Shown here: positions 2,301-6,451 of the stretch, piece after piece
How the letters are laid out: each line of letters starts with the position of its first letter
How positions within the stretch are numbered: the stretch's first letter is position 1
Assembly: GCF_006345805.1 (NCBI RefSeq)
Contig: NC_043016.1
Coordinates: 26,350,001 to 26,414,000 of the forward strand
Reading direction: 5' to 3'
Length of the DNA stretch: 64,000 bases
Origin: Octopus sinensis
Taxonomy: Eukaryota
Notes under the pieces: model-generated
Databases searched by the model: none
Seen by the model: the letters and a program-made list of their open reading frames with translations, nothing else
What the model was told of the DNA's origin: nothing
Translations under genes and position numbers: made by a program

Positions 2301-3540
2301 TTGGAACGCAAACATTCATTTTAGCAATATATTCTTTATTCTTATTGCTTTATTGCTAAGCATTACTTCCTTACTCTTTTACTTACTGACACAAAATTTC
2401 ATGGCATTTTACCTCATAACTTTTCTTCTGCTAATTTTTGTTCAATGCGACTAATGACTCTGAATTCCTCATACATTTTTCTATCATTTAAGCCTAAGAA
2501 AAGTATTCTTTTATTTTAAAATGAAAAAGTTTATGTTAATTGAGGGTGAATAGGAACCTTACTGTCCCCCTACTTAAGGTCACAGATATTTTGATGTAAC
2601 TTTTTTTCTACTGAATCAAATCTCAAACTATTTATGCCAAAGTGTAGCTGAGGAGGTGTCCTCTTTAAAACTATTAACAGTTTGCAATTTAGTTGAGAAC
2701 TGAATTAGTGGTGAAGCTTGGGAGCTGCTGCGATTGACAAAATGGTTGACTTAAGAATATATTCAACCACCACCATGGTTGAATAATATATATATATATA
2801 TAAATATATATATATTACTTATATTATAACGTGATTGATCACCATGCATTCTTATCCAAGTAAGGTTATACTTATCTTTTTGATGCGGCTCTACTCTCTA
2901 CTGTTTTATCTCTCATTCTTTCCCTAATTCCCTTTTTCTCCCCTTCACCGTTTTCTATCTATTTCTTTTTCTCTCTCTCACTCTTTCTCTCTTTCTCTCT
3001 GTCATTGCTCACACGTGACCATCGTGCATCTTTCTCATCCTCATGTGATCATCTTTCTTTTCTTTCAGAACTGTCTTGAGTTGAGGACAGCATATTTCCT
3101 ATCTCTCTCTTCTACCTTTTCTCATATCAAAGAAAATATTTCTCCAGCGTTCGCTATTTTACCCTCGTTCTGGTCCTTTTTTTGTTCCAAACTTTGAAGC
3201 TCCATAAATTTTATTTTGGTAGTTATGGGAGCAACTGTCATCAAAGGCTCATATTGTCATTCAATGCACAAAATGAGGAGCAGATAGACAGCCGACATCT
3301 GATGAAGGGTTGTTCTATATATTATTTTGATCTGTTCTCTCGCTCCATGCGTTTGAACTTGTTTGCATTCCTGTTTCATGTTGTTTACTGTGGTGACATC
3401 CTGTACCCATATATGCATATGTATATAATATATATATATATATATATAGATATATATATATATATATATATATGTAGGTCCCGGGTTGATCCGGGGTTAA
3501 CCACAGTAAGTAAGGTACTCAATACATAGCAGAGTAAAAT

Positions 3541-3614
3541 TAATTTATTATATAGAAGGAGCTTCTACAGGACTAGTACTAGTCCTGTAGAAGCTCCTTC
3601 TATATAATAAATTA
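3541..3614. repeat. Perfect 74 bp palindrome
   Basis: 3541-3577 is the exact reverse complement of 3578-3614, with no loop. Confidence 0.95.
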
Positions 3615-3629
3615 TATAATAAATAAATA

Positions 3630-3676
<47 letters not shown>

Positions 3677-3696
3677 TATACATATACATATATATA

Positions 3697-4117
3697 GGCG
3701 CAGGAGTGGCTGTGTGGTAAGTAGCTTGCTAACCAACCACATGGTTCTGGGTTCAGTCCCACAGCGTGGCATCTTGGGCAAGTGTCTTCTGCTATAGCCC
3801 CGGCCGACCAATGCTTGTGAGTGGATTTGGTAGACGGAAACTGAAAGAAGACCGTATTGTCGTATATATGTGTATATATATAAGTGTGTGTGTGTATATG
3901 TTTTGTGTGTGTGTGTTGTCCCCCTAGCATTGCTTGACAACCGATGCTGGTGTTTTTACGTCCCCGTCACTTAGCGGTTCGGCAAAAGAGACCGATATAA
4001 TAAGTACTGGGCTTACAAAGATAAGTCCCGGGGTCGATTTGCTCGACTAAAGGTGGTGCTCCAGCATGGCCGCAGTCAAATGACTGAAACAAGTAAAAGA
4101 GTAAAGAGTAAAAGAGT
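3697..4117 (+). mobile_element. tRNA-derived SINE, family A, full length
   Basis: GGCGCAGGAGTGGCTGTGTGG head, B box GGTTCAGTCC, tail CCAGCATGGCCGCAGTCAAATGACTGAAACAAGTAAAAGAG repeats. Confidence 0.9.
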
Positions 4118-6451
4118 ATACACACACACACATATATGTGTGTGTGTGTTTTTATGTATGTATATATATATTATTTATATTATTGTTTGAGTCAACACCA
4201 CGCATCCATTTCCAAGTAAATTTGTCTTTATCTTTTTCATACGACACTAATCAATGTTTTCTCTCTCATCGTTTCTCTAATTCCCTTTTTTCCTCCCCTT
4301 CACCATTCTCTACCTCTCTCTTTCCCCCTCTTTATCTATTTCTCTCTTTTGTTGCTCACACGTGACTATCGTCCATCTTTCTCTTCCTCACGTGATCATC
4401 TTTCTTTTCTTTCAAGACTGTCTCAAGAACCGCACGTGTACTATCTCTCTCCTCTATCTTTTCTCTTCTCAAAGAAATCATTTCTCCAGCATTCGCTATT
4501 TTACCCTCGTTCTGTTCTGACGACCCTCCATGTTTCTCTTCGTTCAGTTTCTTTGTATGTCTCCACCATCCTGTTTTCGTTGCCAACTTTCACCCTCATA
4601 AATCCCTAATTTTATTTTGATACTTATGGGAGGAACTGTCTTTGAAGACTCGTGTTGTCGTTCAATGCTCGAAATGAGGAGTAGATAGAGAACCAACAAC
4701 TGATAAAGGGTCGTTTTTATGTTATTGTCCTGTTTTCCATTTGTTTCCCTCGTTGTTTGTGAATTGAACTTACTTGCTTTCATATTTTATATTGTTTACT
4801 GTTGGTGACGTCCGGTAACTGTATATGCATGTGTGTGCATATATATATATATATATATTATTCTCTTTAATTGAACGCCACGCATCCATTTGCAAGTAAG
4901 TTTATCTTTATCCTTTTGATGTGACTCAACTCAATACTGTTTTCTATCTCATCTTTTCTCTAATTCCCTTTTTTCCTCCCTTCACAGTTTTCTATGTGTC
5001 TCTGTCTGTCTGTCTCTCTCTCTACCCCATTTCCGTTTCTTCCCCCCCCTTTTTTTCCCGCTTCTCTCTCTCTCTCTCTCTCTCTCTACCCCTTTTTCTG
5101 CTTCTCTCTCTCTCTCTCTTTCTCTCTCATTGCTCACATATGACCATCGTCCATCTTTCTCTTCCTCATATGGTCATCTTTCTTTTCTTTCAGGACTGCC
5201 TTAAGAACAACAAGGATCCTATCTCTTTTTTCTCTCTTTTCTCTTGTCAAAGAAAATATTTCTCCAGCATTCGGTATTTTACCCTCTTTCTGGTGTAATG
5301 AACCTCTACGTTTCTTTTCGCTAGATTTCCTTGTATGTCTCCACTGTCCTAATTTTGTTCCCAACTTTGACCCCACCTCCATAAATCCCAAATTTTATTT
5401 TGTTACTTACCAGAGCAGCTATCTTCGTAGACTCATGCTGTTGTTCAGTGCTTGAAATGAGAAGTAGATAGACAGTGGATAACTGATGATGGGTTGTTCT
5501 TTATGTCATTTGTCCTGTTTTCCATTTCTTTCTCTTTTTGCTTGCATAATGAACTCATTTGCTTTCGTATTTCATATTGTTTTCTGTTGGTGATGTCTTG
5601 TACTCATATATGCATGTGTATATATGTGTGTGTGTGTGTGTATTATTTATATTATTGTTTGACTGAACGCCACACATCCATTTGCAAGTAAATTTATGTT
5701 TTTTTGATGCGACTCTACTCTGTATGTTTTATCTCTCACCCTTTCTCTAATTTCCTTTTTTCCTCTCCTTCACATTTCCTATCTGTCTGTCTGACTCTCT
5801 CTCTATTTCTTTCTCCATCTCCCTCTTTCTCCACTTCTCCTTTTCGTTGCTCACACGTGACCATCGTCCATCTTTCCCTTTCTCATGGGATCATCTTTCT
5901 TTCCTTTGCAGACTGTCTTAAAGGCAGCACGTATCCTATCTCTCCCTCCTTTATCTTTTCTCTTCTCAAAAAAACTATTTCTCCAGCGTTCGCTGTTTTA
6001 CCCTCGTTCTGGTCTAAGGTCCTTCCACGATTCTTTTCCTTCATTTCCTTGTATGTCACAACTGTCCTGTTTTTGTTCCCAACTTTCACCCTCCATATCT
6101 CAAATTTTATTTTGGTACTTATGGGAGTAAACTATCTTTGATGACTCATTGCCCGAAATGAGGAGAAAATAAACAGCCCGCAACTGATGAATTGTAGTTC
6201 TTTATATTACTTGTCCTTTTTCCATTTTTTCTCGTTGTTTGCTAATTGAACTCATTTGCTTTTGTATTTCATGTTGTTTACTGATGGTGACGTCTGATAT
6301 CCATATATGTATGTGTGTATAAATGTATATATATAATATATATATATATATGTCTGTGTGTGTGAGTGAGTGTGTGTGTATGTGCATGTGTGTGTATGTG
6401 CGTGTTGTGTGTGTATGTGCGTGTGTTTGTATGTATGTACATATGTATGTG

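Follow-up and report, generated by a model that had tools for sequence, protein, structure and literature searches.

Eckert et al. (2023) divided the hammerhead ribozyme into three blocks, S, G and C, and validated type SGC in vitro and in cis (PMC10085705). In this type a fourth helix ('I') bridges stems I and II at their far ends. Block C was assumed to be uninterruptible, with CUGAnGA running straight into stem II. The RNAs came from metatranscriptomes, and in the available part of that paper the sole candidate from the genome of a known organism is one GCS. In the accessible text of Perreault et al. (2011), core insertions are of 1-2 nt only, and the terms 'four-way' and 'stem IV' do not appear (PMC3088659). 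Metazoan Penelope hammerheads conserve an extra nucleotide that lies between residues 9 and 10.1, and a cycle of cutting, ligation and copying was put forward for Penelope elements by Cervera and de la Pena (PMC4209133). Non-LTR retrozymes occur as monomers, dimers and multimers, and circular RNA intermediates have been proposed for them (PMC4209133; bioRxiv 10.64898/2026.07.22.740005; PMC7229834); the words 'SGC' and 'pseudoknot' are absent from the available text of the bioRxiv paper.

Among Penelope-like elements, the Naiads were described by Craig et al. (2021), and no canonical hammerhead is reported for them in the available portion of that study (PMC8557442). Naiad_Ovul and Naiad_Esco are flagged 'HHR_half_core' in its supplement, where the half cores are given without a fold. 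Our search of the openly accessible literature found no non-circularly permuted hammerhead for animal genomes. The S-G-C order is already published, and a split-core form was not found in print, though variants in the supplement of Eckert et al. (2023) could include it.

Here we analyse a 64,000-nt stretch of the Octopus sinensis genome (NC_043016.1, positions 26,350,001 to 26,414,000, forward strand), referred to as the window. It contains a tandem array of repeats with hammerhead motifs. Judging from the sequences of the wider family, we consider it probable that the source copies carry a split-core S-G-C hammerhead on a six-helix scaffold, which is predicted to self-cleave.

Decayed units of the tandem array

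The array extends from about 2813 to 6803. It consists of four units of full length, measuring 600-770 bp, and a fifth that is partial, with (TA)n-rich spacers between them (Table 1). Identity to unit 3 is 69-79% for the full units. What the first-pass annotation gave as units, motifs and coordinates was found as written, and its predicted cut site was also correctly placed. It had described every unit as damaged, and the lesions were borne out: unit 1 carries G12A, and those of units 2 to 4 are listed in Table 1. The unit 1 ribozyme is also broken by mismatches in stem II and in a further helix, X. The hammerhead core is complete in none of the four units, in agreement with the earlier view of decayed copies, and all four ribozyme units in the window are dead.

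Pairs of window units have 6-12 derived alleles in common, compared with a mean of 3.1 between window units and other copies (95th percentile 7, maximum 11). The array therefore probably goes back to a single source copy that later decayed. A search with Rfam found no hammerhead over the array, in two intact family copies or in one copy of the Naiad-type 3' end described below; its single weak match in the window, to HH9 at 1702-1788 (E 8.8), lies outside the array.

Table 1. Positions of the array, its ribozyme parts and other features, counted from the first nucleotide of the window.
Feature	Position	Strand	Comment
Decayed mariner-like transposase remnant	700..1820		presumed identity
Unit 1, non-autonomous Penelope-like element	2813..3417	+	~12% from family majority; start approximate
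Unit 1 ribozyme region	3195..3312	+	from the 5' strand of helix X through its 3' strand
Unit 1, upstream stem II strand	3229..3233		
Unit 1, P0 strands	3235..3240 with 3286..3291		
Unit 1, stem III 5' strand	3248..3252		
Unit 1, predicted cut	3253/3254		
Unit 1, CUGAUGA	3299..3305		
Perfect palindrome, 74 bp	3541..3614	.	between unit 1 and the inserted repeat; outside the family
Unrelated interspersed repeat	3678..4108	+	in the gap between units 1 and 2; SINE-like, an inferred label; other copies in window
Unit 2	4165..4829	+	start approximate
Unit 2 ribozyme region	4590..4713	+	G8A and G at position 17
Unit 3	4850..5614	+	start approximate
Unit 3 ribozyme region	5368..5496	+	C11.1U, G17, weakened stem I
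Unit 4	5640..6311	+	
Unit 4 ribozyme region	6086..6197	+	12-nt deletion across cut site and stem I 5' strand
Partial fifth unit	6480..6803	+	5' half only; without ribozyme
Solo-LTR-like stretch	8400..9360		with TATA-like box and AATAAA, by eye
Broken LINE-like endonuclease and RT frames	10091..10850 and 16266..24239		presumed identity
Two repeat copies facing each other across an (AT)n tract	11450..12130		
(AT)-type microsatellite, 2.2 kb	12131..14312		
Telomere-like TAGGGT array	37572..37759		

A dispersed Penelope-like family

One 20-mer of the family has 707 exact matches in the genome, and its reversed control has none; a first-look search for the family returned 2367 candidates, 40 of which were scored. 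Considering that there are 707 exact matches although copies differ from the majority by a median of 8.5%, the genome should hold thousands of copies. Full copies are ~700 bp long and bounded by (TA)n tracts, and no ORF was found in them. In most copies the 3' end is fixed and the 5' end is truncated at varying points; some have a partial copy upstream or an inverted 5' segment. Among 88 unbiased copies (90 pattern-picked copies minus two duplicate loci), 15 have the start of another unit after their 3' end. The first-pass annotation had proposed a retrozyme-like family amplified in tandem. This needs amendment: the family is Penelope-like, its copies are for the most part dispersed and truncated at the 5' end, and an array in tandem is exceptional.

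Tails, partial tandems and microsatellite targets, the marks of a non-autonomous Penelope-like element, are all present. Such traits are listed for Penelope-like elements by Craig et al. (2021), who give (TA)n as the usual Naiad target (PMC8557442). The array thus belongs to a dispersed, non-coding Penelope-like element. Like the Naiads, as far as the available text describes them, the family has (TA)n targets, 5' truncation, partial tandems, inverted 5' copies and tails; unlike them, it is short, lacks a detected ORF and has no similarity to their 3'-end sequence (PMC8557442). With the non-LTR retrozymes and the Penelope type I hammerheads it has in common that non-coding repeats carry a hammerhead and are linked to Penelope (PMC4209133; bioRxiv 10.64898/2026.07.22.740005; PMC7229834). 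In the accessible parts of these sources, however, the hammerheads of the retrozymes are of type I (C-G-S) and are often minimal ones that act as dimers. Tandem units that each bear a type I hammerhead define a non-LTR retrozyme, whereas the hammerhead here is not type I and the copies are mostly dispersed.

A tree built from columns outside most of the motif (146 copies, being those of 210 anchors that covered the region) resolved four subfamilies, A (89 copies), B (39), C (7) and D (6), with five copies unassigned. Subfamily A includes the window units and differs from the other subfamilies by 12-17%.

No piece of an RT was found upstream of any family copy. A 3' end sequence in common with an autonomous partner was likewise absent, both in comparison with the Naiad-type end (blastn) and with a young GIY-YIG family (by eye). 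Because the family has no meaningful sequence similarity to Naiad 3' ends, we can only infer its mobilising partner. The young family just mentioned is an abundant Penelope-like one with an RT followed by a C-terminal GIY-YIG (loci L112-L140); it has 11,658 candidates, 150 of which were scored, and open frames of up to 804 aa. We considered it as the partner and rejected it, its 3' end being unrelated by eye.

Hammerhead core and strand order

The first-pass annotation had described the strands of the hammerhead as standing in the order A-C-B, which is not circularly related to the known types. This order is confirmed and corresponds to S-G-C: the motif does not have the circular order of types I-III and has the block order of type SGC. 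None of the sequence-level objections that the first-pass annotation had set out against its own reading applies to the family majority. Stems I and III, as originally drawn, are fully Watson-Crick paired there, and position 17 is not G; it is A in 48 of 63 aligned segments and A or C across the subfamily majorities. No subfamily majority lacks any part of the core (C3-A9, G12-A15.1, U16.1, non-G 17 and G10.1-C11.1), and 63 of the 146 copies have it complete. The core together with stems I-III is kept in 17 of these copies, and all six helices in only two. Intact natural copies include L058 (1150-1285) and L163 (1488-1637), both on the minus strand. Like type SGC (HRIMA-1 and its variants) and type CSG in the available text of PMC10085705, the family combines a non-circular order with all core bases and a short linker between stems I and II.

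A descriptor of the S-G-C order (core plus stems I and III) gave 66 matches in 1.64 Mb of retrieved sequence, a sample in which these families are over-represented, and none in 4.9 Mb of first-order Markov controls. Besides the A-D family and the Naiad-type ends, no third family was found among the 66 matches.

The unusual order had been thought to need either a pseudoknot-like fold or a trans or dimeric assembly. The second part of this claim does not hold, as published S-G-C RNAs cleave in cis (PMC10085705). Assembly between tandem units, as in the small Penelope hammerheads, with the scaffold serving that assembly, would be in keeping with the dimer action known for minimal Penelope hammerheads (PMC4209133), with the existence of tandem and partial-tandem copies, and with the tight fold implied by six helices within about 120 nt. 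We nevertheless give it very little credence. With stem III a full, non-palindromic helix of 5 bp, there is no cause for acting as a dimer, and the SGC RNAs in the accessible text of PMC10085705 cleave as single motifs.

Between subfamilies A, B and C, the core changes in none of its 11 columns, a result that is not significant alone. Variable columns occur at a similar rate in helices (10 of 68) and flanks (19 of 119). Among individual copies the core appeared better conserved than the flanks (0.030 vs 0.058), and this comparison was discarded because the copies had been anchored on the core motif.

Partner of stem II and additional helices

Stem II had originally been drawn between GCUC and a GGGU strand downstream of CUGAUGA, after one extra A. 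This partner is probably wrong, since GCUC pairs better with a conserved upstream strand. The upstream stem II has 5-6 Watson-Crick pairs and an energy of -6.2 to -6.9 kcal/mol; the downstream pairing of GGGU with GCUC can be drawn, but it consists of two Watson-Crick and two G-U pairs with -2.2 to -3.1 kcal/mol. The 'extra A' before stem II is likely the first base of another helix, X, formed by the 7 nt that follow CUGAUGA and a segment lying 110 nt upstream. A hairpin, Y, follows the 5' strand of X without a gap and ends directly at G10.1. A further 6-bp helix, P0, is formed by a strand upstream of block S and a strand just before the 3' strand of stem I. P0 joins the distal ends of stems I and II only if stem II is upstream, and it then resembles the 'I' helix of type SGC, which ties the same ends (PMC10085705).

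Considering the upstream stem II, the use of the downstream strand by X and the abutment of Y on G10.1, it is likely that a four-way junction opens the core between A9 and G10.1, with X and Y abutting the core without linker bases. In contrast to type SGC as presented in the available text of PMC10085705, the link from CUGAnGA to stem II would then be broken by the insertion of X and Y, and the two RNA ends would exit via X. The insertion point is where Penelope hammerheads usually bulge one nucleotide, according to the accessible part of PMC4209133.

A plain type SGC hammerhead as first drawn, in which stem II uses the downstream GGGU after a bulged A and the upstream helices are accessory or form an off-state switch, accounts for several of these observations. 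Each of the four subfamily majorities can form the downstream pairing, which has 94.9% of its cells paired, Penelope hammerheads normally have an additional base at 9/10.1 (PMC4209133), and an intact block C follows the published rule (PMC10085705). That pairing score is, however, partly forced, because many copies had been picked by that very 20-mer. The downstream helix is moreover 3-5 kcal/mol the weaker one, its strand has the 7-bp alternative X, and it is impossible in the Naiad-type end, as detailed below. We therefore think a plain type SGC unlikely. The choice of the upstream stem II rests on energy and on the Naiad comparison, and the family alone does not decide it, since stems I, II and X have no subfamily-level covariation by which the two pairings could be separated.

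A possible helix between the G-to-C linker and the region 3' of CUGAUGA had one-sided changes only, by eye, and was omitted from the model.

Covariation within the family

Between subfamilies A, B and C, the 10 variable columns among the 68 helix columns form five pairs, each changed on both sides and none broken. Two of these compensatory pairs are in stem III, one in P0 and two in Y; stems I, II and X are paired and do not vary at the subfamily level, and for stems I and II a different sequence is seen solely in the Naiad-type end, which cannot be aligned with the family. Stem III differs in all four subfamilies and is fully paired in each. Subfamily D (6 copies) has one mismatch each in P0 and Y in the aligned register. 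The two-sided change in P0 can also be followed in single copies, 18 with UA and 14 with CG among 37.

Across 37 copies, 90.1% of the cells of the six-helix structure are paired, compared with 86.4% after shuffling (reached in none of 500 shuffles), and 13 pairs are changed on either side (a count reached in 5 of 500 shuffles); slid controls have 34-49% of cells paired. These pair counts come from 37-39 sampled copies, and the covariation amounts to roughly six inherited events, not 76. The three-stem version of the first-pass annotation reaches an equal score per pair. Folding one intact copy without pseudoknots gave a stability no better than that of its shuffles (z -0.56). The source elements carry a real, selected RNA structure.

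Naiad 3' ends

A motif taken from the published octopus Naiad end has 893 matches with up to one mismatch in the same genome, compared with one for its control. One Naiad-type copy runs, by eye, from the last codons of the ORF through the UTR into the motif. In the Naiad-type majority, stems I, II, III and P0 are fully Watson-Crick paired, Y has one mismatch, and X is weaker, with three Watson-Crick pairs, one mismatch and three G-U pairs. No meaningful sequence similarity between this 3' end and the family was detected by blastn. Of 30 Naiad-type copies, 26 could be scored; a 4-bp stem II is available upstream in 20 of them and downstream in one. An unbroken block C, with the stem II strand 1-2 nt after CUGAnGA, is absent from the Naiad-type end and weakly possible in the family. 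A published squid Naiad end can be fitted by eye to the six-helix layout if single mismatches are allowed in each of II, X and Y. Naiad_Ovul and Naiad_Esco, the flagged half cores named above, conform to this layout.

Reads and contigs contain a further Naiad-like 3' end, the second of its kind, that differs in its flanks (L226, at 1468 and 1539); its two sides also look able to form X. A search for full-length Naiads through an upstream stretch of L234 matched a different young repeat instead. Two nematode Naiads in the available supplement of PMC8557442, Naiad_Hpol and the record preceding it, have 3' ends that by eye look like complete type-CSG hammerheads, with a connector helix of 13-16 bp and unrelated stem sequences; Naiad_Hpol is listed there solely as a half core.

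RNA ends and truncation points

In three raw RNA runs, about 6% of each of which was read, no pile-up of read ends was found at the cut site of the family or at that of the Naiad-type end. The family reads come from both strands, and 74-79% of them continue into unlike sequence; they mostly derive from copies inside other transcripts. A circle of one unit would be joined seamlessly and would leave no mark in these reads. A 5' truncation peak at the cut was also absent, with 1 of 88 copies beginning exactly there and 2 of 88 within 4 nt; truncation points farther than about 85 nt from the anchor are in part artefacts of alignment. Nine of the 88 start at the 3' strand of stem II, 8-13 nt 3' of the predicted cut, an interval that was chosen after looking. 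This cluster perhaps reflects a stall of the RT or trimming of a cut end.

The lack of RNA ends and of a truncation peak at the predicted cut would fit a conserved RNA structure that derives from a hammerhead and does not cleave, for example a recognition signal for the RT. Most copies run through the cut site, which means that the copied RNA was uncut or re-joined there. Read-through copies are, however, also expected from cleavage followed by ligation, and standard RNA-seq of old copies within host transcripts is a weak test of cleavage. The four subfamilies and the unrelated Naiad ends retain every catalytic base and a position 17 other than G (A, C or U), and a non-cleaving structure appears highly unlikely to us.

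Proposed mechanism

For a self-cleaving, split-core hammerhead, we propose the following layout from 5' to 3'. The 5' strand of X and hairpin Y would be followed by the 5' strand of stem II, starting from G10.1, the 5' strand of P0, and the 5' strand of stem III with UH and the cut. The 5' strand of stem I and a short linker would lead to the 3' strand of stem II, GAAA and the 3' strand of stem III. The 3' strand of P0, the 3' strand of stem I with CUGAUGA and finally the 3' strand of X would complete the RNA. This would be a type SGC ribozyme re-opened at A9/G10.1, with X stacked on Y, and stem II would stack on the G-A tandem, as it does in the hammerhead structure.

Cleavage after H17 in tandem or read-through transcripts would release unit-length RNA. 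The cut halves may be held by X, II, P0 and III, which should favour re-joining and possibly the formation of a circle. A Naiad-type RT/endonuclease could then copy the unit or circle into (TA)n tracts. Copying that sometimes went beyond one round would give partial tandems and arrays such as that of the window.

We lean towards the view that, in animal genomes, an entire branch of non-circularly permuted hammerheads is carried by Naiads and their non-autonomous passengers, including an undescribed form that is open at A9/G10.1 and closed by a four-way junction and, by eye, the plain type-CSG forms of nematode Naiads. If this reading is true, it adds a way of wiring a natural hammerhead that is not among the six orders of the published scheme and supplies the ribozyme that Naiads were reported without; Naiads would have seemed hammerhead-free because the descriptors in use were blind to the S-G-C order. 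The role of ribozyme cleavage in Penelope-type retrotransposition would become testable, and RNA engineers would gain an insertion point in the hammerhead core.

A minimal hammerhead in canonical order, with an extra A after the core, was observed in another repeat family (L016, near 1379, and L097, near 1286, both on the minus strand). The sequence of its 4-bp stem II is identical to that of the upstream stem II of the present family, and it is a possible ancestor or a case of convergence.
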